A stretch of 60,897 nucleotides of DNA, filler included. It is 4 parts of 4 records of this genome, joined end to end, with 100 filler letters (N's around TTAATTAATTAA, not from the genome) between each part and the next. Parts side by side here need not be neighbours in the genome. Positions count along the whole stretch, not along the records: positions 1 to 19,446 come from DRR378314_2362; 3 more parts are not named here. One strand, 5' to 3'. Within the stretch, counting starts at the first letter, position 1. Each line of letters opens with the position of its first letter. Shown piece by piece: positions 1 to 17,819 of the stretch. The notes beneath the pieces were generated by a model. It was not told the DNA's origin, did no database searches, and saw nothing but the letters and a program-made list of their open reading frames with translations. The position numbers and the translations under genes were made by a program.

Positions 1-71
1 TGGTAGACACAAGAGACTTAAAATCTCTCGGCCTTATGGCTGTGCCGGTTCGAGTCCGGCTACCCGCACCA
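1..71 (+). tRNA. tRNA-Leu (anticodon TAA), 5' end cut off by window start
   Basis: D-loop TGGTAGAC, anticodon arm AGAGA-CT-TAA-AA-TCTCT, long variable arm, T-arm GCCGG-TTCGAGT-CCGGC, 3' ACCA at 68-71. Confidence 0.93.
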
Positions 72-226
72 ACTTCTCCCTTCCGGTTCCTCCCTTCGCC
101 TTTTATTGCCGCCTTGAATCGCTTTCTGGTACTTTAATGCTTTAGTCTTATTCCTGCGGGAAAGCACGAATACCGGGGCAATAGCATAACGCCATAACAA
201 ACCTCGGATTCAGGGGGAAACGGTTA

Positions 227-3200
227 ATGACTGGGTTTCAGCATCTGTCCGTGCGGCTGAAGATTTTGTCCGTGGCGGGCTTGGGGATCTTCCTGTTCCT
301 CGCTTACTTCTTGTACAGCTACTACATCGCGGAAACCAATATTGATCATCTGCGCCAGGTGGAGAGCCACGACTTTCCGGTGCTGGAACTGGTCAACGCC
401 AACAATGTGGAATTCCTGGCGATCAGCGATGCCTTCGACGACGCCATCAGCCAGGCGGACGCCGGGCTGCTGGACGAGGCCCGGGAACGCTCCGACCGTT
501 TCCTGGAACGCCTCGGCGATATCGAGCGTCTCGACCCCACCCTGAGCGCGCCGGTGGACGATTTGCGCTCCGCCTTTATCACCTACATCACCGTCGCCAA
601 CGACACCGCCGCCGGGCTGGTCGAAAATCCCGGCGCGCGGGTCGATAGCTACGAAGCGCTCACCGAGATGCAGCGCCTGGAGCAGCAGTACACCGACGAG
701 CACGGCGCCTTCGAGCAACAGCGATATCAGAGCTTCCGCGATAACCTCAACGCCAGCCGCGAAGACAATAAAAGCACTCAGTTGATCGGCCTGGCCCTGG
801 GCAGCGTGGCGTTCACGCTGCTCGGCTTGATCGCCCTGCGGGTCACCCGTTCCATTACCCGCCCCCTGGAAGACGCCATGGGCGCCGCGGACAGCATCGC
901 CAGCGGCAACTGGGACACCGAGATCCGCAGCGACAGCCGTGACGAAACCGGCCACCTGATCCGCGCCATCCGCAAAATGCGCGACACCCTGAAAGCGCGC
1001 ACCGACGAGGACCGGCGTCAGGAGCAGCTGAAAAACCAGTTGTCCGAACTCAACGCCCTGATGCGCGGTGATCTGAGCATCGAACAGCTGGGCAACAATC
1101 TTCTCTCCTATGTGGTGCCCACCCTGGAAGCCCAGGTCGGCGCCTTCTATACCTTCGACACCGACAGCGAAACCCTGCGCCTTTCCAGCGCCTACGCCAT
1201 GCAGCGGCGCAAGCAGCTGGCCAACGAATTCCGTCTGGGCGAATCCCTGGTCGGGCAGAGCGCGCTGGAAAAGAAAACCATTATTCTCGAGCAGGTGCCC
1301 GAGGAGTACATGCTGGTGGGCTCCGGCACCGGCAACGCGGCACCGCGCAACGTCATGGTGCTGCCGATTCTTCACGACGATGAATTGAAAGGCGTGCTGG
1401 AAGTGGGCGCCTTTCAGTCGTTTTCCGAGTCCGACACCGCCTTCCTGGAGCAGGGTGCCGCCCTGATCGGCGTGGCCCTGCACAGCGCCCAGAACCGGCT
1501 GCGGCTGGCCGGCATGCTGGAGCAGACCCAGCAGCAGGCGCGCGCGCTGGAAGCGCAGAAAGAAGAGATGGCCCAGGTCAATCAGGACCTGGAAGAGCAG
1601 GCCATGGAGCTGTCCGCCTCCGAATCGCGCCTCCAGCAACAGCAGGAAGAACTGAAAGCGATCAACGAGGAACTGGAGTCCCAGACCCAGGCCCTGCGTG
1701 CCTCGGAGGAGTCCCTGCAGGCCCAGCAGGAAGAGCTGCGCGTCACCAACGAGGAACTGGAAGCCCAGGCCAAGGTGCTCGGCGAACAGAAAGCGGAAAT
1801 GGGGCAGAAGAACAAGGAACTGGAGCTGCTGCACCAGGAGCTGGAGGACAAGATCAAGGAGCTGGAGCTGTCCTCGAAGTACAAGTCCGAATTCCTCTCC
1901 ACCATGTCCCACGAGCTGCGCACGCCGCTGAACTCGATTCTGATTCTGTCCAACGCCCTGGGGCAGAACAAAAAAGGCAACCTGGACGACAAGCAGGTGG
2001 AGCACGCCCAGGTGATCCATTCCGCCGGCGCCGACCTGCTGTCGCTGATCAACGATATTCTGGATATTTCCAAGATCGAGGAAGGCAAGATGGACGTGAT
2101 GGTGGACGCCATCGCGCCGTCGGAGCTGTGCGATCACTTCCAGCGCCACTTCAGCCACATCGCCGAGAACCGCAACGTGGCCTTCCACGTGGCCCGCGGC
2201 GAGGGGCTGCCGGCCAGTTTCTATACCGACCGTCAGCGGCTCGAACAGATTCTGAAAAACCTGCTTTCCAACGCGCTCAAATTCACCGACGACGGCTCGG
2301 TGACCTTAAGCATCGAGCGCCCCGGCGAGGACGAGCGCATTCCCGGCCGCATGGACCGTGCCAGCACGCTTAAATTCGCGGTCACCGACACCGGCGTGGG
2401 CATCCCCGAGGACAAGCAAAAGCTGATCTTCGAGGCCTTCCAGCAGGCCGACGGCACCACCAGCCGCAAATACGGCGGCACCGGCCTGGGGCTGACCATC
2501 TCGCGGGAGCTGGCGCGTCTGCTGGGCGGCGAAATCAGCCTGCACAGCGACGGCCCCGGCACCGGCGCCACCTTCATGCTCTACCTGCCCGAAGGCCATG
2601 CCGGGCAGGGCGAGCAGGCGGACGACGGGGCGGCGCCGGCGGAACCAGTGGACATCGGCGCCAACGCCGAGGCGCACACCGCCGCCGATCTGCCGCTGGA
2701 AGGCCAGGACGACGACGGCTTCGTGGTCCGCGAAAAGACCGTGCTGGTGGTCGAGGACGACGGCGAGTTCGCCAACGTACTGGTGGACCTGGCGGCGGAT
2801 TACGGCCTGGAAAGCCACATCTGTCACGACGGTGAAACCGGTCTCGAGTACGCGCGCCGCTACCGGCCCAGCGCCATTATTCTCGATATCGGGCTGCCCG
2901 GCATCGACGGCTGGGAGGTGATGGAGAAGCTCAAGGCGGACGCCCGCACCCAGGATATTCCGGTGCACTTTCTGTCCGGCAAGGACGAGCGCAAGAAGGC
3001 GCTCGATCTGGGCGCCATCGACTTCCTCGCCAAGCCGGTCAGCCAGGAGCAGATGCTCAGCGCCTTCGCCAAGATCGAGACCGCCATCGAGACCAATGTG
3101 CGGCGCCTGCTGGTGGTGGAGGACAGCGCCATCCAGCATGAAAGCATCCGCGAGCTGTTCGACCAGAAGGGCGTGCAGATCACCGCCGTCACCAGCGGCG

Positions 3201-3904
3201 AGGCGGCGTTGAAAGCCCTCGGTGAAACCGTCTACGACTGCATGATTCTGGACCTGACCCTGCCGGACATGAGCGGCTTCGAACTGCTCGAGCGGCTGCA
3301 CGGCAACGACGCCTACGAGGCGGTGCCGGTGGTGATCTACACCGGCAAGGACCTGACCCGCGACGAGGAAGCGCGGCTGCGCAAGTACGCCGACCGCATC
3401 ATCCTCAAGACCGAACGCTCCCACGAACGGCTGCTCAACGAGGCGTCGCTGTTCCTGCACTGGCTGGAGTCCACCTTGCCCGCCCACCGGCGCGGCAACC
3501 CGGAGCTGATCGAACACCGCGACGACATTTTCGAGGGCAAGAAACTGCTGCTGGTGGACGACGACATGCGCAATATCTATGCGCTGTCCGCCCAGCTGGA
3601 AGAGCTGGGCTTCGATATCCACCTCGCCAACAACGGCCGCGAAGCCCTGGAAGCGTTGGACGAAAGCCCGGACTTCGACATTGTCCTAATGGACATCATG
3701 ATGCCGGAAATGGACGGCTACGAAGCGATGGCGCATATCCGCAGCCAGCCGCGCTTCGCGGCGCTGCCGGTGCTGGCGCTCACCGCCAAGGCGATGAAGG
3801 ACGACCGCGCCAAGTGCCTGGACGCCGGCGCCAACGATTACTGCTCCAAACCCATCGACATGAGCAAGCTGACCTCGCTGATGCGGGTCTGGCTGCATAA
3901 ATAG
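227..3904 (+). CDS. Membrane hybrid sensor histidine kinase (2 TM, periplasmic domain, HAMP, GAF, Q/E-rich coiled coil, HisKA, HATPase, three receiver domains)
   Basis: H-box FLSTMSHELRTPLNSIL, N-box QILKNLLSNALKFT, G1 DTGVGI, G2 GGTGLGL; three REC domains (IILDIGLP, MILDLTLP, VLMDIMMP); HAMP SITRPL..DETGHL. Confidence 0.93.
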   Translation: MTGFQHLSVRLKILSVAGLGIFLFLAYFLYSYYIAETNIDHLRQVESHDFPVLELVNANNVEFLAISDAFDDAISQADAGLLDEARERSDRFLERLGDIERLDPTLSAPVDDLRSAFITYITVANDTAAGLVENPGARVDSYEALTEMQRLEQQYTDEHGAFEQQRYQSFRDNLNASREDNKSTQLIGLALGSVAFTLLGLIALRVTRSITRPLEDAMGAADSIASGNWDTEIRSDSRDETGHLIRAIRKMRDTLKARTDEDRRQEQLKNQLSELNALMRGDLSIEQLGNNLLSYVVPTLEAQVGAFYTFDTDSETLRLSSAYAMQRRKQLANEFRLGESLVGQSALEKKTIILEQVPEEYMLVGSGTGNAAPRNVMVLPILHDDELKGVLEVGAFQSFSESDTAFLEQGAALIGVALHSAQNRLRLAGMLEQTQQQARALEAQKEEMAQVNQDLEEQAMELSASESRLQQQQEELKAINEELESQTQALRASEESLQAQQEELRVTNEELEAQAKVLGEQKAEMGQKNKELELLHQELEDKIKELELSSKYKSEFLSTMSHELRTPLNSILILSNALGQNKKGNLDDKQVEHAQVIHSAGADLLSLINDILDISKIEEGKMDVMVDAIAPSELCDHFQRHFSHIAENRNVAFHVARGEGLPASFYTDRQRLEQILKNLLSNALKFTDDGSVTLSIERPGEDERIPGRMDRASTLKFAVTDTGVGIPEDKQKLIFEAFQQADGTTSRKYGGTGLGLTISRELARLLGGEISLHSDGPGTGATFMLYLPEGHAGQGEQADDGAAPAEPVDIGANAEAHTAADLPLEGQDDDGFVVREKTVLVVEDDGEFANVLVDLAADYGLESHICHDGETGLEYARRYRPSAIILDIGLPGIDGWEVMEKLKADARTQDIPVHFLSGKDERKKALDLGAIDFLAKPVSQEQMLSAFAKIETAIETNVRRLLVVEDSAIQHESIRELFDQKGVQITAVTSGEAALKALGETVYDCMILDLTLPDMSGFELLERLHGNDAYEAVPVVIYTGKDLTRDEEARLRKYADRIILKTERSHERLLNEASLFLHWLESTLPAHRRGNPELIEHRDDIFEGKKLLLVDDDMRNIYALSAQLEELGFDIHLANNGREALEALDESPDFDIVLMDIMMPEMDGYEAMAHIRSQPRFAALPVLALTAKAMKDDRAKCLDAGANDYCSKPIDMSKLTSLMRVWLHK

Positions 3905-3906
3905 GA

Positions 3907-4779
3907 GTGCCCGCAGTGGAACCGCAGCCGGCGATCAGCGATGAACAGGTGCAAGTGGAGGATATCGAGATCCGGCTGCTGCTGGAGGCGATCTACCAGC
4001 TCTACGGCTACGATTTCCGCTCCTACAGCCCGGCCTCCATGCGCCGGCGCATCATGCACCGGCTCACCATGTCCGGCTTTTCCACGGTGCTGGAGATGAC
4101 CGACCGGGTGCTGCGCGACCGGCAGTTCTTCGTCACGCTGCTCAACGACCTCACCGTCAACGTCACCGAGATGTTCCGCGACCCGGAATTCTACAAGGCG
4201 TTCCGCGAGGAAGTGGTGCCGGTGCTGAAAACCTTTCCGTTCATCAAGATCTGGCACGCGGGTTGCTCCACCGGCGAGGAAATCTACTCAATGGCCATTC
4301 TTCTTGAGGAAGAGGGGCTCTACGAGCGCGCCATGCTGTACGCCACGGACATCGACAAGAACGTCCTGGCGGCGGCCAAGAAAGGCATCTATCCGATCCA
4401 TGCGTTCAAGCAGTACACGGACAATTACCGCCGCGCCGGCGGCCGTCAGTCGCTCAGTGACTACGCCACCGCCCGCTATGACAGCGTCATCATGGAGCAA
4501 CGCCTGAAACGCAATATCGTGTTCGCCGATCATGATCTGGCCACTGATCAGGTGTTCGGTGAAATGCATGTGATACTCTGCCGCAACGTTTTGATTTACT
4601 TTGACCGGCCCCTGCAACAGCGCGTGTTCAAGCTGTTCGGAGAAAGCCTGGATATGGGCGGCTTTCTGTGCCTGGGTACCAAGGAAAGTCTGCGTTTCAG
4701 CGGCAATGAAGAGTCGTTCGACGTGGTTAACCGATCACTGCGGATTTTCCGTAAAAGACAAATGCGTCCCAACGCATAA
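3907..4779 (+). CDS. cheR: CheR-type protein-glutamate O-methyltransferase (start may be GTG 3916, which has AGGAG 8 nt upstream)
   Basis: YGYDFRSY, TVNVTEMFRD, IWHAGCSTGEEIYS, ATDID, ILCRNVLIYF motifs. Confidence 0.93.
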   Translation: MPAVEPQPAISDEQVQVEDIEIRLLLEAIYQLYGYDFRSYSPASMRRRIMHRLTMSGFSTVLEMTDRVLRDRQFFVTLLNDLTVNVTEMFRDPEFYKAFREEVVPVLKTFPFIKIWHAGCSTGEEIYSMAILLEEEGLYERAMLYATDIDKNVLAAAKKGIYPIHAFKQYTDNYRRAGGRQSLSDYATARYDSVIMEQRLKRNIVFADHDLATDQVFGEMHVILCRNVLIYFDRPLQQRVFKLFGESLDMGGFLCLGTKESLRFSGNEESFDVVNRSLRIFRKRQMRPNA

Positions 4780-4801
4780 CAGACACGCTTAATCGAGAAT
4801 A

Positions 4802-5275
4802 ATGATGATCGAGCAGAAACTGCTGTTGGTTGATGATCAACCCGCCAACCTGGTCTCCCTGGAAGCGATTCTGGAGGATGAGGGGCGCACGCTGTTGAAG
4901 GCCGAGTCCGGCCAGGAAGCGCTCAAAATTCTGCTCAAGGAAGACGTCTCCCTGGTGCTTCTGGATGTGCAGATGCCCGGCATGGACGGCTTCGAGGTGG
5001 CGGAATTGATGCGTCAGCGCAAGGACACCCAGACCATTCCCATTATCTTCGTCACGGCGATCAGCAAAGAGAAGAAATACGTGTTCAAGGGCTATCAGGC
5101 GGGCGCCGTGGACTACCTGTTCAAACCGCTGGACCCGCTGATCCTCAAGAGCAAGGTGAATTTTTTCCTGGAGCTGGACCGGCAGCGCCGCGAGTTGCAG
5201 GTGAAACTCAAGGAGGCCCAGGCGCACCGGGCCGCCTATGAGGCGGAGAAGCGCAATCGCGGCCAGGGGGAGTAA
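4802..5275 (+). CDS. Single-domain response regulator with short C-terminal coiled coil
   Basis: LLVDD, LLDVQMPGMDG, FVTA, YLFKP receiver motifs; no output domain. Confidence 0.9.
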   Translation: MMIEQKLLLVDDQPANLVSLEAILEDEGRTLLKAESGQEALKILLKEDVSLVLLDVQMPGMDGFEVAELMRQRKDTQTIPIIFVTAISKEKKYVFKGYQAGAVDYLFKPLDPLILKSKVNFFLELDRQRRELQVKLKEAQAHRAAYEAEKRNRGQGE

Positions 5276-5890
5276 GTGCCCGGCGCGACGCCCGTTAAAG
5301 CGGTCGTTATGGGGGCATCCTGGGGTGGCTTGAACGCCTATTCCTCGGTGCTCGCCAGCTTGCCTGAAGGCTTTCCCGCGGCCATCATGTTGGTCCAGCA
5401 CCAGAACGCCAGCACCGAGAACAGGCTGGCCTGGCTGCTGGCCCGCTACAGCCGGCTGCCGGTGGTGGCACCGGAAGACAAAGAGCGCATCCGGCCCGGG
5501 CACGTCTATGTGGCGCCGCCCGGCTACCATATGCTGGTGGACGCGGACGAAACCATTGCGTTGTCCATGTACCGGGCGGTGCATTTCTCCCGGCCGTCGA
5601 TTGACGAGTTGTTCTTTTCGGCGGGCCACGTGTATGGCAAAAAGGTGATCGGGGTGATCCTCACCGGCGCCAACGAAGACGGCTCCGAGGGTCTGGACTA
5701 TATACGCCGCCGCGGCGGGCTGACCCTGGCTCAGTCGCCGCAGAGCAGCGAGGCGCCGGCCATGCCGGAAGCCGCGATAACAAAGGGATCGGTGCGGGAA
5801 GTGCTGGATCTGGAACGCATCGGCCCGTATCTGGCGGAATTCTTGATTGGGTTGCAAGATGAAAAAACAGAACATCCTGGTCGTCGATGA
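5276..5890 (+). CDS. cheB: CheB-type methylesterase, catalytic domain only (no receiver)
   Basis: GASWGG (Ser), VQH (His), GVILTGANEDG (Asp), YVAPPGYHML, SRPSID. Confidence 0.9.
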   Translation: MPGATPVKAVVMGASWGGLNAYSSVLASLPEGFPAAIMLVQHQNASTENRLAWLLARYSRLPVVAPEDKERIRPGHVYVAPPGYHMLVDADETIALSMYRAVHFSRPSIDELFFSAGHVYGKKVIGVILTGANEDGSEGLDYIRRRGGLTLAQSPQSSEAPAMPEAAITKGSVREVLDLERIGPYLAEFLIGLQDEKTEHPGRR

Positions 5891-6974
5891 TCACCGGGAG
5901 AACCTGATCGCCATGGAGGCGTTGCTGGAGGCCGAGGACCGCAACCTGGTCATGGCCGGCTCCGGCAACGAGGCCCTGGCGTTGGCGCTCAAGCACGATT
6001 TCGCGCTGGTCCTGCTCGACGTACAGATGCCGGAGATGGACGGCTTCGAGGTGGCGCAGCTGATGCGCCAGAACCGCAAGACCCGGCACATCCCGATTAT
6101 CTTCGTCACCGCCATCTCCAAGGAACAGAAGTACGTGTTCGAGGGCTACCGGCACGGCGCCGTGGACTATTTGTTCAAGCCCGTCGATGAACAGATTCTC
6201 GATGCCAAGGTCAATGTGTTTATGGAGCTGGACCGCCAGCGGCGTAAGCTGCAACAGGCGGTGGTGCAGATGAAGCGCCTCAAGGACGAGAACGAGCGCC
6301 TTCTGCACGCCCTCGGCGAGTCGGTGGTGGGCGCCGACGCCGACGGCCAGGTGACCTTTTGCAATGAATCCGCCTGCGCGCTGCTGAACGTGGAGCGCGA
6401 CACCCTGCTGGGCACACCGGTGACGCCGCTGCTGTTCGGCCAGGGGGAATGGCGGGATTCGCAGGTTCTGGCCCGCTGCGCCGAGGGGCGGCACTGGGAA
6501 GGCGACCTGGATGTGTACCCGTCCGGCGACGATGAGCCGGTGCCGCTGCGGGTGCACGCCAACCCGGTGCTGCGCGAGGGCGGCGAGTTCACCGGGGTGG
6601 TGTTCATGCTGCGGCCGCGGGAAGCGGAGGCCGGCGACGACCGCCGCGAGCGCCGCCGCCACCCGCGCAAGCGCATGTTTCATGAACTGGTGGTGTTCGA
6701 CCGCAGCACCGGTGGTAACGTGGGCCGGCTGACCAACCTGAGCGTCGGCGGCTTCAAGCTGTCGTTGCGGCGGGACGTGGCGCCCAGCGAGCAGCTGCAA
6801 TTGGGGATGGTGCTTCCGGACCAGATCGGTGGCGTCAACACGATGAGCTTCAACGCCAGGGTGGTGTGGAGCGAGGCACTGGACGAGCCGGGGGAATACC
6901 ACGCCGGTTTTCAGTTCCTGGATCTCTCCGACAGCAACGGCGAGATCGTGGAAATACTTATGGAAAGGTATTGA
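5859..6974 (+). CDS. REC-PAS-PilZ domain response regulator
   Basis: N-terminal receiver (LLDVQMPEMDG), PAS-like ESVVGADADGQVTFCN, C-terminal PilZ motifs RRHPR and NLSVGG; ATG at 5859. Confidence 0.85.
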   Translation: MKKQNILVVDDHRENLIAMEALLEAEDRNLVMAGSGNEALALALKHDFALVLLDVQMPEMDGFEVAQLMRQNRKTRHIPIIFVTAISKEQKYVFEGYRHGAVDYLFKPVDEQILDAKVNVFMELDRQRRKLQQAVVQMKRLKDENERLLHALGESVVGADADGQVTFCNESACALLNVERDTLLGTPVTPLLFGQGEWRDSQVLARCAEGRHWEGDLDVYPSGDDEPVPLRVHANPVLREGGEFTGVVFMLRPREAEAGDDRRERRRHPRKRMFHELVVFDRSTGGNVGRLTNLSVGGFKLSLRRDVAPSEQLQLGMVLPDQIGGVNTMSFNARVVWSEALDEPGEYHAGFQFLDLSDSNGEIVEILMERY

Positions 6975-6977
6975 TGT

Positions 6978-8489
6978 ATGAGTGAAGCAGTCATGGAGCA
7001 GTCCGAGCTGCCGGAAGTGGGCGACGGCCCGCTGCTGTTGCCCTACGGCTACGCCCGCCGGTTCGGTGTGCTGCTGCGGGAAAAAGACGGCCGGCGTGAA
7101 CTCTGTTGCCGCGACGACGTGTCGCTGTCGGCGGTGGCCGAGGTGCAGCGCTGGCTGGGTGGGCTGCCCGCCATCGTGCGGCTGGACGACGGCGCCTTCA
7201 GCGCCGCCATGGCGATCACCTACGAGCAGCAGCGCGGCGCCGCCGCCGAGGCCGCCGACAACCTGGAAGGCCTGGACCTGGCCAGCCTGGCGGACTCGCT
7301 GCCGGAGACCTCGGACCTGCTGGAGCAGGAAGACGACGCCCCCATCATCCGGCTGATCAACGCCCTGTTCCAGGAAGCGATCCGCGAGGACGCCTCCGAC
7401 ATTCACATCGAAACCTTCGAACGCCGCCTGGTGGTACGCATGCGGGTGGACGGGGTGCTGCGCGAGGTGCTCACCCCCAAACGCGAGCTGGCGCCGCTGC
7501 TGGTGTCGCGCATCAAGGTCATGGCGCGCCTGGACATCGCCGAGAAGCGGATCCCCCAGGACGGCCGCATCTCCCTGCGCCTGGGCGGCCGGGACGTGGA
7601 CGTGCGGGTCTCCACCATGCCCTCCAGCAACGGCGAGCGGGTGGTGCTGCGTCTGCTCGACAAGCAGGCCGGCCGCCTGCAGGTCTCCCATCTGGGCATG
7701 GGCGACGTCTGCGACCAGCACATGCGCGAGCTGATCCACAAGCCGCACGGCATCATCCTGGTCACCGGCCCCACCGGTTCCGGTAAGACCACCACGTTGT
7801 ATGCCTCGCTCACCGAGCTCAACGACAGCACCCGCAACATCCTCACCGTGGAAGACCCGATCGAATACCAACTGGAGGGCATCGGCCAGACCCAGGTGAA
7901 CACCAAGGTGGACATGACCTTCGCCCGCGGTCTGCGCGCCATTCTCCGCCAGGACCCGGACGTGGTGATGGTGGGCGAGATCCGCGACCTGGAAACCGCC
8001 GAGATCGCGGTGCAGGCGTCCCTCACCGGTCACCTGGTACTGTCCACCCTGCACACCAACACCGCGGTGGGCGCGGTGACCCGGCTGCAGGACATGGGCA
8101 TCGAGTCGTTCCTGCTTTCAAGCTCGCTGCTCGGGGCCCTGGCCCAGCGCCTGGTGCGGGTGCTGTGTCCGGACTGCAAGCGTCCCTACCAGCCCAGTGA
8201 AAGCGAACGCCGCATGCTCGGCCTGGCCCCGGACCAGGACGTGACCCTGTACCACCCGGAGGGCTGCGAGACCTGTAACCACCAGGGCTACCGGGGCCGT
8301 ACCGGCATCTACGAGCTGGTGATCATCGACGACGCCATGCGCGAACTGATCCACGAACGCGCCGGCGAGCTGGAGATCACGCGGCACGCCCGCAAGCTGA
8401 CCCCCAGTATCCGCGAGGACGGCTGGCGCAAGGTGCTGGCCGGCGACACCAGCATCGAAGAAGTACTGCGCGTCACCAAGGAAGACTGA
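6978..8489 (+). CDS. gspE: Type II secretion ATPase GspE
   Basis: ASDIHIE, Walker [32 protein letters not shown] zinc motif. Confidence 0.96.
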
Positions 8490-9712: not shown

Positions 9713-9786
9713 CCCGCCGGCAAGAAGAAAAAGCGCAATCCCCAAAAACAAGGAAGTGACTTCCAGACAACACGAAAAGGTGTCTC

Positions 9787-10218
9787 ATGAAAAAGATGCA
9801 ACGCACCCAGAGCGGTTTCACGCTGCTGGAAATCATGGTGGTAGTGGCCATTATCGGTCTGCTCGCCGCAATGATCGTGCCCAATGTGATCGGGCAGGGG
9901 GAACAGGCCAAGGTGGACATCGCCAAGACCAATATGTCGCGGGTGGTCCAGCAGCTTGATATGTACAAGTTCAACAACGGCACTTACCCGTCCACCGAAG
10001 AGGGCATCAACGCCCTGGTGGAGCGCTCCGCTTCGGCCCGCAAGTGGCCCGAGGGCGGTTACCTGCCGAGCGTGCCGGAAGATCCCTGGGGCAATGAGTA
10101 CGTGTACATCAGCCCCGGCGTGGACGGCCCGTTCGACCTGTATTCGCTGGGCGCCGACGGCGCGGAAGGCGGCGAGGGCACCGACGCGGACATCAGCTGG
10201 CGCGATAGCGACAACTGA
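9787..10218 (+). CDS. gspG: Type II secretion major pseudopilin GspG
   Basis: Prepilin site G/FTLLEIMVV, YPSTEEG, DPWGNEY, SLGADG. Confidence 0.95.
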   Translation: MKKMQRTQSGFTLLEIMVVVAIIGLLAAMIVPNVIGQGEQAKVDIAKTNMSRVVQQLDMYKFNNGTYPSTEEGINALVERSASARKWPEGGYLPSVPEDPWGNEYVYISPGVDGPFDLYSLGADGAEGGEGTDADISWRDSDN

Positions 10219-10952
10219 TGTGGCGGGCCGGGCCTGACGCCAAGCCGCGCGGCCGCCGCCAAAGTGGCTTCACCCTGCTGGAAATCCTGGTGGTGGTGGG
10301 GCTGGTGGCGATGTTGTCCCTGGCGGTGCTGGTGGTGCCGGTGTGGGTCGACGACCAGCGCCAGCTGGACAGCGAGAGCGCCAGCCTCGCCGACACCCTG
10401 ACCATGCTCAACGAGCAGAGCCTGTTCTCCGGGCGTCTGATGGCGCTCAGGGTCACGGAACGGGGCTGGACGCCGTTGACCTACGACGTCGGCGAGCGCG
10501 CCTTCGTGCCCGCCCAGGGCAACGGCCTGCAGGCCAACCGCCTGCCCGAGAGCCTGGAACTGACCTGGCAGTACGACGACCTGCCCGACGACGAGGACGA
10601 AGAGCGGGTGTCCCTGCAGGACGCCGCCAAGCAACTGGTCAGCGACGACCCGTTCGGCGGCGATGACCAGGGCCTGCTCGGTGACGACCGTGACGAACCG
10701 GAAGACGGACGTGACGAGGAGGAAGAGGACCAAGAGCCGCTGCCCCAGGTGTTCTTTTTCCCCAGCGGCGAGACCACGCCGATCACCTTCACGGTGCGCT
10801 CCCGGCAGGACCTGGACCTGGAAGCCCGCCGACAGATGACCGCCCTCGGCAAGGTACGCGACCCGGACCGGGACGAAGAAGAAGAGGCCCTGACCGCGCC
10901 GGATGAAAAGCCGGACGACAGCCTGATCGACGACGACTTTCTGGAGGATTGA
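10218..10952 (+). CDS. gspH: Minor pseudopilin GspH with acidic insertions
   Basis: G/FTLLEILVV, PQVFFFPSGETTP motif, position after gspG. Confidence 0.85.
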   Translation: MWRAGPDAKPRGRRQSGFTLLEILVVVGLVAMLSLAVLVVPVWVDDQRQLDSESASLADTLTMLNEQSLFSGRLMALRVTERGWTPLTYDVGERAFVPAQGNGLQANRLPESLELTWQYDDLPDDEDEERVSLQDAAKQLVSDDPFGGDDQGLLGDDRDEPEDGRDEEEEDQEPLPQVFFFPSGETTPITFTVRSRQDLDLEARRQMTALGKVRDPDRDEEEEALTAPDEKPDDSLIDDDFLED

Positions 10953-10954
10953 CC

Positions 10955-11428
10955 ATGACCTCGCGCGGCCGGCAACACAGCCAGGCGGGCTTCACATTGG
11001 TGGAGGTGGTGCTCGCGGTAGCGGTGCTGGCGCTGGCCATGGTCACCCTGGGCCAGACGCTGGGCGCCAGCGCCGTGGCCTACCGCAATATCGACGACAC
11101 CCGCCAGGCCTATCTGGTCGCCGCCGACAAGCTGGTGGAGATGCAGGTGTACCAGCAATGGCCCAACACCGGCACCAACGACGACCAGGTGACCCGCGGC
11201 GACCGCGAGTGGTGGGTGCGCACCACCATCAGTTCCGGGCCCTATCCGGACACCCGCCGGGTCGACATCGAAGTGGGCGAAATGCGCGACGATGACGAAG
11301 GCGATTTGGTCTACGAGCTGGCCAGCCTGATCGGCAAACCGGCCCAGGAGGGGCAGTCCCTCACCGGTGGCGAGCAGGGCGGCGGTGGTCAGCAGGGCGG
11401 CGGCGGCCAGGATATGACGGGGGGCTGA
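10955..11428 (+). CDS. gspI: Minor pseudopilin GspI
   Basis: G/FTLVEVVLAVAVLA, GGAGG upstream of ATG 10955, gene order. Confidence 0.85.
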   Translation: MTSRGRQHSQAGFTLVEVVLAVAVLALAMVTLGQTLGASAVAYRNIDDTRQAYLVAADKLVEMQVYQQWPNTGTNDDQVTRGDREWWVRTTISSGPYPDTRRVDIEVGEMRDDDEGDLVYELASLIGKPAQEGQSLTGGEQGGGGQQGGGGQDMTGG

Positions 11429-12069
11429 TGCGCGATTCCAGGGCACGGCAGCCGGGGTTCACCCTGCTGGAAATGTTGATCACCATCGCCATCTTCGCGC
11501 TGATGTATGTGGTGGCGGTGGAATTTCTCAGCAGCGCCATGAACAACCGCGACACCCTCAGTGACGGCGCCACCGAGCTGGAGGACGCCCAGCGCGCGGT
11601 CACCTACCTGACCCTGGATTTCGAACAGATGATCGCCCGGCCGGTGCGCGACCCCTACGGTGATCCGCAACCGGCCCTGATCGGCAACGACAACTACGTG
11701 GAATTCACCCGCCTGGGCTGGGCCAACCCCTTCGCGCTGCGCCGCCGCAGCGAAATGCAGCGCGTGGTCTACGCCTTCGAGGACGAAAAGCTCTACCGCC
11801 GCTACTGGCCGGTGCTGGACACCAACGTGGCCACCGAATTCCAGGAAGACGTGCTGCTCGACGGCGTCGCCGACTTTAAGGTCCGTTATCTCGACCAGGC
11901 GCAGACCGGCGAAGTGGGCTGGCTGGAATTCTGGCCCGAGCCGGCCCTCGCCAACACGCCGGTGTGGCAGCAGCGGCTGCCGAAAAGCGTGGAAATCGAC
12001 ATCGAAATGGAAGACGGGCAAACCCTGCACCGCTACTTCCGCACGGTGGTGAATCCATGGGCGTCCTGA
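11428..12069 (+). CDS. gspJ: Minor pseudopilin GspJ
   Basis: G/FTLLEMLI, RPVRDPYG, FTRLGWANP, RSEMQRVVY, LYRRYWPVLD. Confidence 0.92.
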   Translation: MRDSRARQPGFTLLEMLITIAIFALMYVVAVEFLSSAMNNRDTLSDGATELEDAQRAVTYLTLDFEQMIARPVRDPYGDPQPALIGNDNYVEFTRLGWANPFALRRRSEMQRVVYAFEDEKLYRRYWPVLDTNVATEFQEDVLLDGVADFKVRYLDQAQTGEVGWLEFWPEPALANTPVWQQRLPKSVEIDIEMEDGQTLHRYFRTVVNPWAS

Positions 12070-13163
12070 TCGTACACCCGCGCAGCGGCGGGCGGCGCCG
12101 CCAGCAGGGCATGGCGCTGATCATCGTGCTGATGCTGTTCGCGATCCTGGCGGCGGTGACCACCGAGGTGATGTTCCGCCAGGACCGCTTCCGGGTGCGC
12201 ACCGAGAACCTGCTCGAATGGGACAAGCGTTACCAGTACGCCATGGCCGCCGAAGTGGTGGCGGTGCAGGGGCTGATCGACGACCTGGACGAAGACCGCC
12301 GCACCAACCAGCAACTGGACGAATGCATTGAAGAGCAGTGGGCCGTGCAGCTGACGCCCACGCCCTACGAGGACGCCATCCTCAGCGCCAGCGTTCAGGA
12401 CCTGCAGGGGCGCTTTAACCTGAACTGGCTGGTGGAGGCCAACGGCGCCGGCTTCACCCGCGACGACGAGGCCCGGGATATGTTGCAACGGCTGTTGCAG
12501 CAGACCCTGCCGGACCCGGGCAAGGCGAGCATCCTCGCCAACGAGATGACCGACTGGATCGACAGCAACAACATCGTCGACGCCGTGGAAGGCGCGGAAG
12601 ACGCGGAATACCGCCTCAGCCGCACGCCCAACATGCCGGTGGCCCATGAAACGGAACTGCGCGCCCTGCGCAGCTTCACGGTGCAGGATCTGTTTCCGGA
12701 CCCGGCCGTCTGGGGGCTGTTCACCGCCTTGCCCACGGACACCACGCTGAACGTGAACACCGCGCCGTTGCCGGTGCTGGACGCCGTGCTCGGGTCGCTG
12801 GCGGGCTCCGGAGCCGCCGAGGCGGTGGTGTCGCTGCGCCAGGAAGAGCCCATCGAGGACATCGGCACCCTGATGCAGCAGGAGCCGTTCAGCAGCCTGG
12901 ACGCGGATCAAAAGCAGGCCCTGAGCGACCGTCTCGGGGTCGCCAGCGAGTACTTCCAGGTGATGGTGGACGTGGAAGTGGCCGGTAACCTTAGCCGTCT
13001 GGTCAGCCGGGTGCGGCGCTCCGCCGGCGGCGGCGCGGACGGCACCCGGGTGTACAGCCGCCAGGTGAAGCCGCTGCTGTCGCCGCTCGAACCCGCCTGC
13101 AATCCCTTTTACAATGCGGGCGATGACAACAACAATGTGATAGACAGTATTCCAGGGACGTAA
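12057..13163 (+). CDS. gspK: Minor pseudopilin GspK
   Basis: QQG/MALIIVL, DLQGRFNLN, DWIDSN, LNVNTAP, SEYF; likely start ATG 12057. Confidence 0.9.
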   Translation: MGVLIVHPRSGGRRRQQGMALIIVLMLFAILAAVTTEVMFRQDRFRVRTENLLEWDKRYQYAMAAEVVAVQGLIDDLDEDRRTNQQLDECIEEQWAVQLTPTPYEDAILSASVQDLQGRFNLNWLVEANGAGFTRDDEARDMLQRLLQQTLPDPGKASILANEMTDWIDSNNIVDAVEGAEDAEYRLSRTPNMPVAHETELRALRSFTVQDLFPDPAVWGLFTALPTDTTLNVNTAPLPVLDAVLGSLAGSGAAEAVVSLRQEEPIEDIGTLMQQEPFSSLDADQKQALSDRLGVASEYFQVMVDVEVAGNLSRLVSRVRRSAGGGADGTRVYSRQVKPLLSPLEPACNPFYNAGDDNNNVIDSIPGT

Positions 13164-13175
13164 AGGATTCTTATT

Positions 13176-14327
13176 GTGGCCGATTCAGCATTGATCTATC
13201 TGGCCCCGGGGGCATTTCAGGACGCACTGGCCGACGCCAGGGTGTTGTTCCAGGAAAGCCGCGCGGACAGCCCGCGCCAGGGCAGCCTGGGCGAGGCGCT
13301 GGAAGCGCTCTCCGGGCGGGCGGTGAACCTGGTGGTGACCAGCGCCGAAGCGCTGCTCACCGGCGTCACCCTGTCGCGCAAGCAGGCCCGCCATTTGCAG
13401 CGGGTGCTGCCCTATCTGCTTGAGGAGCAGTTGCTGGAAGCGCCGGAGCAGCTCTGGTTCGCGTCCGGCAAGGCCGAGCACGGCCGCTACCCGGTGGCGG
13501 TGATCAACCGGCCCAATCTGGAAGCGCTGATCGACCTGTGCCGCGAGCACCGGGTGCGCCCGCAGAGCCTGAAAGCCGACGCCGACCTGCTGGCCGCCCA
13601 GACCCCGGTGCTGATCACCGTGGAAGGGTGGGGCACGCTGATTCTGGAGCGCGACCAGGCGCTGGTGGCCGACGAAGCCCAGCGCGAAGCGGTGCTGGCG
13701 CTGCACGGCGACGACGAACTGCATTTCACCCGCCTGGAAGACCCGGCCACGCTGTGCGATCAACTGCAGGCCGCGCTGGCCGCCGATCACGGCGTGGAGA
13801 TTCTGCAGGGGGCCTTTTCACAACGGCAGAACCAGGCCAGCGGCCCGTCCCCCTGGCAGCCGTGGAAACCGGTCATGGGGCTGGCCGCGGCGGTGTTCTT
13901 TATTGCCCTGGCGGCGGTCTGGGCCCAGCAGTGGCGCTACCAGAAAGCGGCCGACGAGACCTTCGCCCAGGCCGCCGAGCTGTACCAGTCGCTGTTCCCC
14001 GGCGACCGCGCCACCTCCGGCCTGCGCCGCCAGTTCCAGGCGCGCCTGGCCCGTTTGGGCGGTGACGGGGACGGCGGCGGCGGGACCCTGTTCCGCGTTC
14101 TCCCGGCGGTGGCCTCGACGCTGTCGCAAAGCGAAGTGGAACCCAAGCGGCTGCAGTTCGACCAGCGCGACGGCAGCCTGCTGCTGGATCTGGGCGCCAA
14201 GGAATACAACCAGGTGGAGAAGCTGCAGGGCGCCCTCAACGAGAAAGGCGTACGCGCCACGATTGCCAACTACCGGAACGGCGCCACCGGCGTCACCGCC
14301 CGGGTGAAAGTGGAGCAGGCGGGATGA
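13176..14327 (+). CDS. gspL: Type II secretion protein GspL
   Basis: LPYLLEEQL motif, single TM near residue 235, gene order after gspK. Confidence 0.85.
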   Translation: MADSALIYLAPGAFQDALADARVLFQESRADSPRQGSLGEALEALSGRAVNLVVTSAEALLTGVTLSRKQARHLQRVLPYLLEEQLLEAPEQLWFASGKAEHGRYPVAVINRPNLEALIDLCREHRVRPQSLKADADLLAAQTPVLITVEGWGTLILERDQALVADEAQREAVLALHGDDELHFTRLEDPATLCDQLQAALAADHGVEILQGAFSQRQNQASGPSPWQPWKPVMGLAAAVFFIALAAVWAQQWRYQKAADETFAQAAELYQSLFPGDRATSGLRRQFQARLARLGGDGDGGGGTLFRVLPAVASTLSQSEVEPKRLQFDQRDGSLLLDLGAKEYNQVEKLQGALNEKGVRATIANYRNGATGVTARVKVEQAG

Positions 14328-14848
14328 ATAAGAATCTGCAACAGGCACGGGAAAAACTGGACGCCAAACTGGCGCCGGCCCGCGCCTGGTACGAGCAACG
14401 GGAACCCCGCGAACAGCGCATTCTGCAGGCCCTGGCGCTGCTGGTGGCGGCGGCGCTGGTGTACTGGCTGATCTGGCAGCCGGCCTGGGACGCCCGCGAC
14501 GCGGCCCGCCAGCGCTATCTCGCCAACCAGGAAACCCTGGCCTGGATTGAAAGCAACGCGGACGCGGTGCGCGCGGCCCGTGGTGGCGGCGGCAATACCG
14601 GTGCCGACCTGGGCCCCAACTGGACCAGCAATATCAGCCGTTCGGTGCAGTCCTACGGGCTGACCCTGCGTGGCTTCACGCCGGACGGTAACCGTTCGGT
14701 GCGCATCCAGATGGAAAACCAGCCCGCCAGCGAGATGCTGCTCTGGCTGCAGGCCATGGAGGAAAAGGGCCTGACCCTGGCGACCATGGAAATGAGCGCC
14801 GGCGACAAACCGGGCACCGCCTCCCTGCGTGCCACCCTGGCGCGCTGA
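14324..14848 (+). CDS. gspM: Type II secretion protein GspM
   Basis: W...PREQR then TM ending YWLIWQP; overlaps gspL stop. Confidence 0.87.
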   Translation: MNKNLQQAREKLDAKLAPARAWYEQREPREQRILQALALLVAAALVYWLIWQPAWDARDAARQRYLANQETLAWIESNADAVRAARGGGGNTGADLGPNWTSNISRSVQSYGLTLRGFTPDGNRSVRIQMENQPASEMLLWLQAMEEKGLTLATMEMSAGDKPGTASLRATLAR

Positions 14849-14851
14849 TCC

Positions 14852-15640
14852 GTGGCGAAAAAAGCCACCCGCAAAAAAGCCCCGCGACGGCCCGCCGGCG
14901 CCCCAGGCGCCACCGGCGGGGCCGCGCTCACCGCCTGGTTCTGCTACGCGCTGACCACGGTGGTGCTGGCCCTGGGGGTCACCTGGGCCCTCTACGCCCA
15001 GGCCGATTACGGCTATGCCTTCTGGTATAAAACGCTGGATATCGACCGGCACATCGAGCAGTACGGGCCCCTTAACCGGTTCCAGCGGGCGGATTTCGAG
15101 GCGCTGGACGCCGACCAGCACATCGAGCTGTTTCACCGCATCCGGGTGGCGGTACACGACGGTGGCGAGGGGCTGGCGTCGATCCGCTATCCGGACCGCC
15201 AGGGCACGCCGGTGACCCTGCTGCGGCCCGCCGAAGTGCAACACCTGCGCGACGTCGCCCATCTTATCGACAGTGGCCGCTGGGCCCTGGCGGTGGCCTT
15301 CCTGGTCTGGCTGCCGCTGGCCGCCGGGGTGGCCCGCCGGCCTGCGCCGGATTGGCGGCGGCGGGCGCTGGTCGCTGTGACCCCGTTGCTGGCTATGGTA
15401 GTTTGGCTGCTCGTTTCCGGGCCTGAAGCGGTGTTCTACCAGTTCCATATCTGGCTGTTTCCCGCCGACCATGAGTGGTTCTTCTACTGGCAGGACTCAT
15501 TGATGAGCACGCTGATGAAGGCGCCGGTGCTGTTTGGCGGCATTGCCGTGGTGCTCGTGGGGGGCACCCTGGTTCTCACGCCGTTGTTCTACCGTGGCGG
15601 TCTCTGGCTGATCGGGCGCCTGCGCCGCGGCCCACTCTGA
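14852..15640 (+). CDS. DUF1461 / lipoprotein intramolecular transacylase (Lit)-like membrane protein
   Basis: Four hydrophobic segments; EVQHLRDV and FYQFHIWLF..W.F...SL motifs recalled for DUF1461/Lit. Confidence 0.7.
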   Translation: MAKKATRKKAPRRPAGAPGATGGAALTAWFCYALTTVVLALGVTWALYAQADYGYAFWYKTLDIDRHIEQYGPLNRFQRADFEALDADQHIELFHRIRVAVHDGGEGLASIRYPDRQGTPVTLLRPAEVQHLRDVAHLIDSGRWALAVAFLVWLPLAAGVARRPAPDWRRRALVAVTPLLAMVVWLLVSGPEAVFYQFHIWLFPADHEWFFYWQDSLMSTLMKAPVLFGGIAVVLVGGTLVLTPLFYRGGLWLIGRLRRGPL

Positions 15641-15653
15641 TAATTAGATATTC

Positions 15654-17651
15654 ATGAGCATAGATGTATTGGCCGCCGACGAGCGCGGCGACGAGAACGT
15701 GCAACGCTGGCTGGCTTCCGGCTTGCCGGTGCCGCCGAGCTGGCGTATTTCCCGCCAGGCCGTGCTGGAGCAGGACACCGACGGCCTGGTGCGCCGGCTG
15801 CGCGCCTTGCCGCGCATGTTCAACGGCGAGCGTTACTGGGTGCTGCACCAGGGGGCCATGAACGCGGAGTCCCAGCGCGAGAGCCTGCTCAACCTGGATT
15901 CCGACGAAGCCCTGGCGGCGGCCCTGACCACGGTGTTCGGCCGCGACCCGGCCCCCGAGCAGGTGGTGGTGCAGGCGCTGCCCCGCCAGCGTGCCGCCGG
16001 GGTGCTGTTCACCCGCCACCCGCTGCGTCAGGATCTGCCGCACATGGTGGTGGAAGGCGTGGCCGAAGGCGGCGCCGAACGGCAGCGCCTGATTTTCGAT
16101 GAGTACGGGCGCCTGGTGTATCGCGCCGACAGCGACGCGGTGGCCCTGGATCAGGCGGTGCCCGCGTCCCAGCTACTGGCGCTCGGCGAGCAACTCAAAC
16201 GGGGCTTCGAACGGCCCCAGGCCGGCGAATGGATCCACGACGGCGAGCGGCTGTGGCTGCTGCAGACCCTGCCGGTGGGCTCGTTGCCGGTGCCCAAGGA
16301 AGTCTGGACCCGCCGCGCCACCCCGGCCCTGTTCAACCAAGCGCTGACCCCGCTCTGGTACACCCTGGCCGGGCGCTGGCTGAAGACCCATTTCTGGCGA
16401 CGCCTGGTTGAGAAGCACGGCTGGGACGATCTCGCGCGGATCGAACCCTACCGCCGCCAGCAAAGCCACCTCTACACCAACAGCGAATTTTTCCGCCGCC
16501 TGCGCGAGCACCATCCCGGCGCGGCGGCCAAGGTGCCGCCCGCCTGGCAACCGCTGGAAAGCGTGGCCGGCTACCCGGGCGCCGGCAAACCGGCCGGGCG
16601 GCTGCAGCATTGGCGGCAGAGCGGCGAACTGGCGGTGATCGGCCGGCGGCTCAAGGGCTGGCGGGCGCCGCACCGGGACCGCGAACGCCTGTGGCGCAGC
16701 CTGATGGAACTGGACCGTATCGGCGAGCGTCTGGCCGCCCAGGAGGGTGCGCTGGCCTATCTGTCGCTGCCCGACCGCCTGCTCGCCGAGCGCGACCCGG
16801 TTCCTCTGGCGCTGCTGCTCAGCGAGGTGGAAATGGCCGCCCTGCGGGCGGTGCTGGCCGGCGACCGGAGCGCGCTCGAGGCCAGCCGCCTGCGCACCGG
16901 GGCGGACCCGGTGCACGCCCCGCTGTGCGACCAGCCGGCGCAGTTCCAGAGCCTGCGCACGCCGGCGCGGCCGCCGACACTGCACGAAGAGATTCCGCCG
17001 CACCTGGATCAAAGCCTGTTGCGGCTGGCGCGGCGCGCCCGCGGGCTGCGCTTCGCCGTCGGTAACCGGCTGCGCACCCTGTTGGTGGACGTGGCCGCGC
17101 TGCTGGTGCGCGACAAGTTGCTCGCCCACCCGGACGACGTCTTCTTTCTCTACTTCGACGAGCTCTGGGAACTGTGGATGCAGGGCAGGGTGCCGGCGTC
17201 CGCCTCCGGCGACGTGATCGGCCAGCGCAAGGTGCGCTACCTGGAAGACGCCCACGCCGGCGCCCCGGACTGGAAGATGGACCGCATCGGCTTCGGCTTC
17301 GGCGGCGGTGGCCGGCTCAGCCCGGTACTGCGCGGCGCCACCCTGGTGCCCGGCACCGCCAGCGGCCCGGTGCGCCGCCTGTGCAGCGCCTGGGCCCTGA
17401 ACCGGCTGCAATCCGGCGACATCGTCGTGGTGGATCAGGTCGACCCCAGCTGGGCCCCCTGGCTGGTGCAGGCCGCCGGCCTGGTGATCACCGGCCGCGA
17501 CCCCGCCAACGTCGCCGCCAGCCTCGCGGTCGCCTGCGCCATCCCCGCGGTCTGGGACGTCAGCGACGTCATGCACAGCGTCGTCGACGGAACGCGCGCC
17601 ACGCTCGACGGCGAGCGTGGCGAGTTAATAGTTAACAGCGAGAGCAGTTAA
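15654..17651 (+). CDS. PEP-synthase/rifampin-phosphotransferase-like protein, probably catalytically inactive
   Basis: Degenerate ATP-grasp (AAGVLFTRHP, EW...LWLLQTLPV), DDVFFLYFDEL, C-terminal swivel domain GDIVV..VDPSW..AAGLV..IPAV..LDGERGEL with Val in the His position. Confidence 0.75.
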   Translation: MSIDVLAADERGDENVQRWLASGLPVPPSWRISRQAVLEQDTDGLVRRLRALPRMFNGERYWVLHQGAMNAESQRESLLNLDSDEALAAALTTVFGRDPAPEQVVVQALPRQRAAGVLFTRHPLRQDLPHMVVEGVAEGGAERQRLIFDEYGRLVYRADSDAVALDQAVPASQLLALGEQLKRGFERPQAGEWIHDGERLWLLQTLPVGSLPVPKEVWTRRATPALFNQALTPLWYTLAGRWLKTHFWRRLVEKHGWDDLARIEPYRRQQSHLYTNSEFFRRLREHHPGAAAKVPPAWQPLESVAGYPGAGKPAGRLQHWRQSGELAVIGRRLKGWRAPHRDRERLWRSLMELDRIGERLAAQEGALAYLSLPDRLLAERDPVPLALLLSEVEMAALRAVLAGDRSALEASRLRTGADPVHAPLCDQPAQFQSLRTPARPPTLHEEIPPHLDQSLLRLARRARGLRFAVGNRLRTLLVDVAALLVRDKLLAHPDDVFFLYFDELWELWMQGRVPASASGDVIGQRKVRYLEDAHAGAPDWKMDRIGFGFGGGGRLSPVLRGATLVPGTASGPVRRLCSAWALNRLQSGDIVVVDQVDPSWAPWLVQAAGLVITGRDPANVAASLAVACAIPAVWDVSDVMHSVVDGTRATLDGERGELIVNSESS

Positions 17652-17819
17652 CAGTTAACAGTGAAAAGTTAATAGTGGCGCGGGTGGGGCCGGGGGAGCG
17701 GAAAGGCCGTGCCCGCGCTGCTTGGGCGGCGAGCTTCCCGCCACCCCAGAAGCGCGGGCACGGCCCAGGAATCAGCCCGCGATCCCACCCGCGAACTGTT
17801 CACTGTTAACTCTTAACTA

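Follow-up and report, generated by a model that had tools for sequence, protein, structure and literature searches.

Gene order in Alcanivorax-type bacteria suggests that a kinase cassette of the RsbK/CfcA kind controls type II secretion

Introduction

In Bacillus cereus, the CheR-type methyltransferase RsbM methylates the S-helix of the kinase RsbK, which has the architecture CHASE3-HAMP-GAF-S-helix-HK-REC and no HPt domain (PMC4574943). In Pseudomonas putida, a cluster led by cfcA also includes cfcB (CheR) and cfcC (CheB), neither of which has a chemotaxis role, and CfcA is described there as necessary for the diguanylate cyclase activity of the receiver-containing GGDEF/EAL regulator CfcR (PMC4951495). 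The present work concerns a cluster of 16 genes at positions 227-17651 of a 60,897-nt stretch of DNA, filler letters included (hereafter the window), in which signalling genes of this kind lead directly into the genes gspE-M of a type II secretion system (T2SS). The signalling genes, which encode a hybrid histidine kinase, a CheR, a lone receiver, a CheB and a REC-PAS-PilZ response regulator (RPZ), are referred to below as the module.

Most of what is known about T2SS regulation concerns transcription, together with a few ATPases that bind cyclic di-GMP (c-di-GMP) themselves. The MshEN-type ATPases represent the known direct route of c-di-GMP to an ATPase of the GspE family (PMC4624772, PMC5013675), and their motif RLGxx...LxxxLxxQ is tabulated in another paper (PMC10333796).

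Conservation of the module upstream of gspE

The original prediction, made from the letters of the window alone, placed the signalling genes directly upstream of gspE, and this arrangement turns out to be family-wide. Within Alcanivoracaceae (family f1; 70 genomes from nine genera, every one of which was compared), full-length RPZ is encoded in 63 genomes, and in all 63 of them, covering eight genera, the gene that adjoins it, in the same orientation, is the GspE match. The two genes are separated by 3 nt in the window and by 1-4 nt in seven of eight loci taken from different genera of the family, the eighth having a gap of 44 nt; the distance from match to match reaches about 150-210 nt in some genera. 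Three further genomes (G037, G019, and G046) were left unassigned on account of a contig edge or incomplete assembly.

The neighbourhood recurs in other families. In family f34, the module, a gene for a REC-PAS-GGDEF-EAL protein and gspE-M lie on one strand in all five resolved loci, one further locus running into a contig edge. The c-di-GMP theme of the original prediction is strengthened by this gene, inserted at the very junction of the module and gspE. In family f48, the module is located 1.7-2.0 kb from gspE in six of nine resolved loci, and at one named locus from a metagenome-assembled genome (MAG), L099, the gap between the module and gspE measures 509 nt and contains no gene. The association of the module with gspE is conserved well beyond the family, and it is neither obligatory nor always operonic. 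The order of the cluster in Alcanivorax-type bacteria suggests, without proving it, that the module controls secretion.

The kinase and its probable methylation enzymes

The signalling genes are a member of the published RsbK/RsbM and cfcABCDE kind of cassette: they comprise a kinase of the HAMP-GAF-helix-HisKA-HATPase-REC type, an adjacent CheR gene and a conserved helix that travels with CheR. The membrane hybrid histidine kinase (227-3904) contains HAMP, GAF, HisKA, HATPase and three REC domains according to Pfam, two transmembrane segments and no HPt domain; Pfam matches nothing in its sensor region (residues 1-205). Between GAF and HisKA, at about residues 420-550, lies a signalling helix rich in Glu and Gln. 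Residues 455-520 (1589-1786), the proposed target of methylation, form two copies of the repeat SE..LQ.QQEEL...NEELE.Q..AL, near-invariant in an alignment of 25 kinases from four families, while the same kinases are otherwise only about 50% identical overall. The helix stretch is common to 993 proteins at E ≤ 0.001, the best 120 of which all have the architecture HAMP-GAF-HisKA-HATPase-REC.

The gene for the CheR-type protein methyltransferase, dependent on S-adenosylmethionine (3907-4779; Pfam CheR 141.9 bits, CheR_N 38.4 bits), begins 2 nt past the stop codon of the kinase. When one genome of each species was scanned with the helix and the start of HisKA as the seed, CheR not being part of it, at least 524 relatives were returned; 78 loci were kept, and the 71 with at least 1.5 kb of sequence after the kinase could be judged. 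CheR adjoins the helix-bearing kinase in 68 of these 71 loci and CheB in 53 of them. Since the seed contained no CheR, the association of CheR with the helix is real. The loci originate from Alcanivoracaceae, MAGs labelled Moraxellaceae, Bacillaceae, Paenibacillus, Bacteroidales, Desulfobacteraceae, Calditrichota and an anammox MAG. The CheB gene (5276-5890; Pfam 188.5 bits) encodes the methylesterase catalytic domain without the usual receiver, a short form found in all 27 loci compared, and the protein of the window keeps the Ser/His/Asp positions when aligned to the solved CheB 6ymz.

No MCPsignal, CheW or CheA-type domain was detected by Pfam in any of the 16 proteins, and the kinase is a hybrid kinase of the HisKA type, not CheA. 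The description of the CheR/CheB pair as receptor-less probably does not hold, given the conserved Glu/Gln-rich helix in the kinase and the presence of CheR next to such kinases. By analogy with RsbK, the kinase itself is most likely the methyl acceptor for CheR and CheB, and the term receptor-less is therefore misleading.

One locus of a Bacillus sp. (L117:3460-12787) carries a helix-bearing kinase of the type 4HB-HAMP-GAF-HisKA-HATPase with two REC domains, CheR downstream of it, and, next to the cassette, a REC-GGDEF-EAL-LuxR protein and a second hybrid kinase. These gene neighbours extend the tie between the cassette and c-di-GMP enzymes into Bacillota.

The response regulator RPZ and the lone receiver

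The RPZ gene most likely starts at ATG 5859 (5859-6974, a longer frame being open from 5847) and so overlaps cheB by 32 nt; this form is 371 aa long. Pfam assigns REC, PAS and PilZ domains to its product (PilZ 42.3 bits). Receptors of c-di-GMP of the PilZ family are recognised by the motifs RxxxR and (D/N)xSxxG. In an alignment of 26 RPZ sequences the first of these (R266, R270) is invariant and the second (D/N293, S, G298) is conserved, and the residues D10, D11, D54, T84, and K107 of the receiver are invariant. As judged from these residues, RPZ is likely both the output of the kinase and a reader of c-di-GMP.

At 90% identity, the RPZ family amounts to 102 clusters out of 5.8 billion proteins. 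Every one is about 380 aa long with REC-PAS-PilZ architecture; those with names belong to Alcanivorax, Alloalcanivorax, Isoalcanivorax or unclassified Pseudomonadota and bear generic protein names only. Full-length relatives occur in four families among the 201 genomes sampled from the order, and the PAS-PilZ part was found in only two genomes of a 400-genome sample of the class, both belonging to those four families. RPZ is a lineage-restricted and new element of the cluster. Among 1742 candidates, no longer protein fusing PAS-PilZ to another part was found at E ≤ 0.001, which is weak evidence.

The lone receiver gene (4802-5275) encodes a single REC domain, assigned by Pfam, and a C-terminal helix. 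It is a paralogue of the receiver and linker helix of RPZ, with 61% identity over residues 5-164. At the locus L013 of the same family (genome G047), the kinase, CheR, CheB, RPZ and gspE genes are present and the lone receiver gene is absent, so this receiver is dispensable. An interpretation of the lone receiver and CheB as the two halves of a split CheB was dropped in view of this paralogy, the PleD-like character of the receiver and its absence at L013.

Type II secretion genes

The secretion part of the cluster begins with GspE, the assembly ATPase (6978-8489; TIGR02533 704.6 bits against a cut-off of 630; Pfam T2SSE and GSPE_N1E), and GspF, the inner-membrane platform (8489-9712; TIGR02120 488.1 bits, cut-off 424). 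The pseudopilins follow: the major pseudopilin GspG (9787-10218; NCBIfam 160.7, cut-off 88.85), a GspH-like protein (10218-10952), GspI (10949-11428; 44.8, cut-off 44.35), GspJ (11428-12069; 128, cut-off 64.85) and GspK (about 12060-13163; 206.5, cut-off 130), whose gene most likely starts at ATG 12060 rather than at GTG 11964. The N_methyl motif is present in GspG, GspH, GspI and GspJ. The assembly platform is completed by GspL (13176-14327; TIGR01709 179.3 bits, cut-off 65) and GspM (14324-14848). NCBIfam equivalog cut-offs are thus passed by E, F, G, I, J, K and L, and GspM is identified through Pfam T2SSM (124.4 bits); GspH scores below its cut-off (66 against 80), yet it has the prepilin N_methyl motif and the right position.

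Genes gspN, gspC and gspD are not found within the cluster. In the nearest genome compared, G001, whose proteins are 99-100% identical to those of the window, they are located together, as gspN-gspC-gspD, on another contig. At E ≤ 1e-150, 68 of the 70 genomes of the family have one GspE match each, and gspE-M looks like part of the organism's single T2SS. Pfam finds only GSPE_N1E and T2SSE in GspE and no T2SSE_N/MshEN domain at E ≤ 0.01. Any c-di-GMP input to GspE would therefore come in trans.

A gene that is absent from the window, for a protein of about 440 aa without a Pfam match, comes after gspM in family f34 as well as in five Alcanivoracaceae genera; three representatives (L014:3334-4656, - strand; L019:15273-16580, + strand; L023:1027-2421, - strand) are 42-60% identical to one another. 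A distant relative (31-37% identity) is encoded elsewhere in two genomes of the window's genus. If the T2SS has a linked accessory or cargo gene, this one is a stronger candidate than the Lit-like gene described below. In genome G040, which belongs to the window's genus and has no module, the gspE frame (L022:8746-10725, - strand) is open for 156 codons upstream of the aligned start, and two uncharacterised proteins and an N-acetyltransferase are encoded upstream of it.

Lit-like and PEP-utilizer-like genes

The two last genes of the cluster had been proposed as dedicated accessory genes of the T2SS. The first of them (14852-15640) encodes a membrane protein of the Lit/DUF1461 family (Pfam PF07314, 30.2 bits against a cut-off of 24), the match covering profile positions 73-164 of 176. 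Its orthologues in other families score 28-38.6 bits, and the 30 nearest Atlas clusters all belong to the Lit family; comparison with solved structures gave chance-level matches only (E about 0.04). By sequence, the product is a Lit-family membrane protein. The gene is present as a single copy in 41 of 201 genomes of the order. Outside Alcanivoracaceae, neither gspM nor the PEP-utilizer-like gene lies within 1.5 kb of it at any of 25 loci, and its neighbours differ among the eight of these loci that were scanned. Within the family it is located directly after gspM or, in five genera, past two extra uncharacterised genes, and it follows gspM in module-less genomes as well. This wide occurrence away from gspM speaks against a dedicated accessory role.

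The final gene (15654-17651) codes for a phosphoenolpyruvate (PEP) utilizer-like protein of 665 aa, similar to Rph and PEP synthase (Pfam PEP-utilizers 47.4 bits). The protein is closest to a "PEP synthase" of the Rph type from Listeria, the similarity being confined to the C-terminal 180 residues (E 3e-11). The column of the catalytic His in 5hv2 and 5fbs aligns with Val, and there is no His at the catalytic place in the window protein or in three orthologues; the loss is thus old and has been kept. In keeping with the earlier label of a dead phosphotransferase, the swivel domain lacks the catalytic His in all four sequences compared. The ATP-grasp domain PPDK_N reaches 22.4 bits against a cut-off of 27, over 38 residues only, with a short conserved stretch AAGVLFTRHP, and is carried by 37-99% of the members of neighbouring Atlas clusters. 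Both genes look like family-specific passengers rather than parts of the T2SS.

Boundaries and junctions of the cluster

All 16 genes lie on the + strand and fill positions 227-17651 in dense packing, and open reading frame calling, Pfam and NCBIfam confirmed the predicted number, orientation and family of each. The block extends from a tRNA cluster to a palindrome of about 180 nt. At its upstream edge, the 3' part of a tRNA gene (1-68, + strand; Rfam tRNA match 31.8 bits, 5'-truncated) corresponds to tRNA-Leu in G001, where the order is a GacA-like regulator, uvrC, pgsA, tRNA-Gly, tRNA-Cys, tRNA-Leu, 155 nt and the kinase. Downstream, between the last gene and the convergent metH, lies a nested palindromic element (17623/17640-17830; dG -112.9 kcal/mol, z -9.6). 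The tRNA genes on one side and the palindrome with convergent metH on the other make the 16 genes a bounded block.

The palindrome at 17640-17830 is likely a two-way terminator. It is single-copy, with GC-rich inner arms of 27 nt that are 89% complementary, and outer arms made of 7-nt AGTTAAC-like repeats that start within the 3' end of the last gene. In contigs from four public runs, 111-182 nt at this place are skipped or replaced, which makes the element strain-variable, like a small mobile or REP-type element.

Read from the sequence, the gaps along the cluster range from -32 to +22 nt, except for the 74 nt before gspG, and overlaps of stop and start codons recur throughout. The quoted junctions of 3 nt (6974/6978), 3 nt (14848/14852) and 13 nt (15640/15654) were correct, as was the largest gap of 74 nt. 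Terminator-like sites number 13, against 13.3 expected from shuffled sequence, the five on the + strand all being within coding sequence; a consensus scan gave four promoter-like sites against 2.6 expected, none of them near gspE. With counts that do not exceed those of shuffled sequence, these scans are uninformative either way. In Rfam, the tRNA fragment was the sole match over positions 1-19400 at E ≤ 0.1, which leaves no riboswitch in the leader or before gspG. A sigma-54-like TGGTAC-N5-TGC seen by eye in the leader has a spacing that is off by one base and is not claimed as a site.

Pairs of N runs (2 x 44 N with 12 letters between) at 19447-19546, 34610-34709 and 50105-50204 cut the genes metH (at 19436), mfd (about 34710) and that of ATP synthase beta (about 50102), so the window probably consists of four joined contigs. 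Only positions 1-19446 are certainly contiguous with the cluster, and the DNA past 19.5 kb need not adjoin it. Positions 20087-59729 contain the housekeeping genes mutY, asmA, hisB/H/A/F, selD, radA and mfd, together with genes for a TonB-dependent receptor, a uvrD-like helicase, a thrombospondin-repeat OmpA-family protein and a prolyl oligopeptidase; no obvious tie to the T2SS was seen among these genes.

Proposed mechanism and alternative explanations

The cluster is made of two functional units arranged head to tail, most likely read together, with a promoter in the 156 nt that lie between the tRNA and the kinase. The first (227-6974) is a two-component cassette of the RsbK/CfcA kind with a putatively methylatable helix, and the second (6978-14848) is the gspE-M part of the T2SS. 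The membrane hybrid kinase may sense a periplasmic or GAF-bound signal. The helix that connects GAF to the phospho-accepting His would be methylated by CheR and demethylated by the receiver-less CheB, and its methylation would set the gain of the kinase. Phosphate would pass from the kinase to the three receivers that it carries, to the lone receiver and to RPZ, presumably by direct phosphotransfer, as was proposed for RsbK, since there is no HPt domain; the lone receiver could serve as a phosphate sink or competitor. RPZ would bridge the two units, integrating phosphorylation, a cue sensed by PAS and c-di-GMP, and may act post-translationally on the T2SS motor, most likely on GspE, by analogy with the action of PilZ on PilB in Xanthomonas (PMC8389850). 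The Lit-like and His-less PEP-like genes would be co-expressed passengers. Gene content, motifs, the conserved order and the tie of CheR to the helix are observed; the methylation of the kinase, the routes of phosphotransfer, any contact between RPZ and GspE and the single transcript are the steps that we infer. A more specific version, in which RPZ works as a clutch that, only when phosphorylated by the methylation-tuned kinase and bound to c-di-GMP, docks on GspE (or GspL/GspF) and switches T2SS assembly on or off, is tentative and rather doubtful.

The chances appear about evenly balanced that a methylation-tuned kinase cassette acts via RPZ on the T2SS, with the cluster read as one unit. 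Several observations weigh against it. In four genomes of the family (G040, G044, G045, and G048), gspE-M is present without the module and unrelated genes lie upstream. In family f48, the module and gspE have two opposite-strand genes between them, one for an uncharacterised protein and one for an MscS-like channel; consequently, co-transcription is not conserved and the linkage does not require a single transcript. In one genus of this family, three genomes have no gsp gene in the roughly 9.7-12 kb downstream of the module, and linkage is found in neither of the two resolved loci of family f57; all five of these genomes have a GspE orthologue elsewhere. The families involved all belong to one order and the surroundings are syntenic, uvrC-pgsA lying upstream in both G001 and G048, so that some of the conservation may simply reflect descent from a shared gene order. 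A fusion of PilZ with GspE was not found either, which is weak evidence. The comparison of synteny thus has two sides: linkage is conserved in the family and recurs in f34 and f48, and the module and the T2SS operon are separable in the four and five genomes just listed. Among 23 public runs listed as RNA evidence, four were used, all as contigs, and these span the junctions PilZ/gspE, gspE/F, gspF/G, gspM/Lit and Lit/PEP-like. Their depth is flat, however, and one contig continues into the convergent metH, so the contigs can neither show one transcript nor exclude DNA carry-over. The tight, co-oriented packing itself stands.

The strongest alternative, quite possible while short of an even chance, is that cassette and T2SS are neighbours without a functional link. 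The cassette would then control, for example, c-di-GMP-dependent biofilm or polysaccharide formation or pili, an ancestor having acquired it in front of gspE, downstream of the tRNA cluster, with read-through tolerated. The separation of module and operon in nine genomes fits this explanation, as do the syntenic flanks within the family and the insertion point after three tRNA genes; cassettes of this type also have other outputs, namely REC-GGDEF-EAL at the Bacillus locus, CfcR in P. putida and sigma-B in B. cereus. It accounts less well for adjacency in 63 of 63 genomes from eight genera with a spacing of 1-4 nt in seven of the eight loci sampled, for the two further families that keep the neighbourhood despite insertions at the junction, and for the occurrence of the PilZ form of output only in lineages in which the module is, or formerly was, beside gspE.

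The 3-nt gap, which leaves no room for a promoter, the lack of a promoter-like site near gspE and the stop/start overlaps throughout the cluster would also agree with a purely transcriptional coupling, in which gspE-M depends on the promoter of the module and the PilZ protein does not touch the machine. This is unlikely: gspE of family f48 must have its own promoter because of the intervening opposite-strand genes, the match-to-match distances of some Alcanivoracaceae genera offer promoter room, and a consensus scan cannot exclude a promoter inside the PilZ coding sequence. Still less probable, and indeed very improbable, is that CheR and CheB act as a third adaptation pair, for chemotaxis or a pilus, on chemoreceptors encoded elsewhere instead of on the kinase. 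Suitable substrates exist, G001 having eight matches to the signalling domain of methyl-accepting chemotaxis proteins (MCPs) and two other CheR/CheB sets, all on other contigs. The other two CheR genes, however, adjoin MCP genes on their own contigs and the pair of the cluster does not, and CheR follows helix-bearing kinases across phyla. A chemotaxis role was ruled out for cfcB and cfcC, according to PMC4951495, and RsbM methylates RsbK (PMC4574943).

Significance

The RPZ gene lies a few bases from gspE throughout the family, and its product, if it acts there, would represent a new post-translational route into the T2SS. Should the clutch operate, secretion would acquire adaptation, or a "memory", of the sort described until now for chemotaxis, and secretion in Alcanivoracaceae would be tied to the surface-attached state with high c-di-GMP. 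This family includes the dominant marine alkane degraders, which rely on switching between the free and the attached state to live at the oil-water interface. In Alcanivorax borkumensis, c-di-GMP rises on hexadecane (PMC6440734). Cassettes with methylated kinases have barely been studied, and the cluster is a tractable Gram-negative example of them that contains CheB as well as CheR; the role of RPZ is directly testable.

Comparison with described systems

The literature searched, which did not cover most subscription journals, contained no description in which a T2SS operon is joined to such a cassette or to a response regulator with a PilZ domain, in line with the original prediction that knew of no account of the combination. 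The kind of cassette has already been published; the PilZ-type output and the joining to a T2SS operon are not described in the literature searched. Two papers considered as possible accounts of the cluster were set aside, the A. borkumensis study concerning another gene, ABO_2691 (PMC6440734), and a Halomonas chemosensory study concerning CheA-based clusters (PMC5907407).

With respect to individual domains, the window differs from three groups of known systems. The Che, Wsp and Chp pathways employ reversible glutamate methylation by CheR and CheB, and Wsp ends in c-di-GMP signalling; the cluster, in contrast, encodes no MCP, CheA or CheW, and its kinase is a hybrid kinase of the HisKA type. 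Compared with the MshEN-type ATPases, GspE of the window has GSPE_N1E only and no T2SSE_N/MshEN match. The PilZ protein of Xanthomonas is a single-domain protein, whereas that of the window has REC and PAS domains in addition, along with canonical binding motifs. The Xanthomonas PilB-PilZ-FimX complex may nevertheless be a model for RPZ on GspE, being a c-di-GMP-linked case of a PilZ adaptor on an ATPase of the GspE/PilB family (PMC8389850); this complex drives a type IV pilus and not a T2SS, and FimX is the component that binds c-di-GMP (PMC10333796).

In domain order and gene content, the cluster is close to RsbK-RsbM(-RsbY) and to cfcABCDE. As in the Bacillus system, the kinase of the window has the order HAMP-GAF-helix-HisKA-HATPase-REC without HPt and a CheR-type gene lies directly downstream, and the helix-seeded search returned many Bacillaceae loci in which a kinase is followed by CheR. 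RsbK has one receiver, no paired CheB and an output through a PP2C phosphatase to sigma-B, whereas the kinase of the window has three receivers and is accompanied by a CheB without a receiver, a lone REC and a REC-PAS-PilZ output, after which the T2SS genes begin. With cfcABCDE the window shares the leading position of the kinase gene, the CheR and CheB genes and a REC paralogue within the cluster, and the homologous cluster of family f34 includes REC-PAS-GGDEF-EAL. The cfc cluster has its output in CfcR, which synthesises c-di-GMP and whose gene lies elsewhere, and T2SS genes are not reported for that cluster; in the window, the output domain is instead a reader of c-di-GMP, PilZ, and the cluster runs on into gspE-M.

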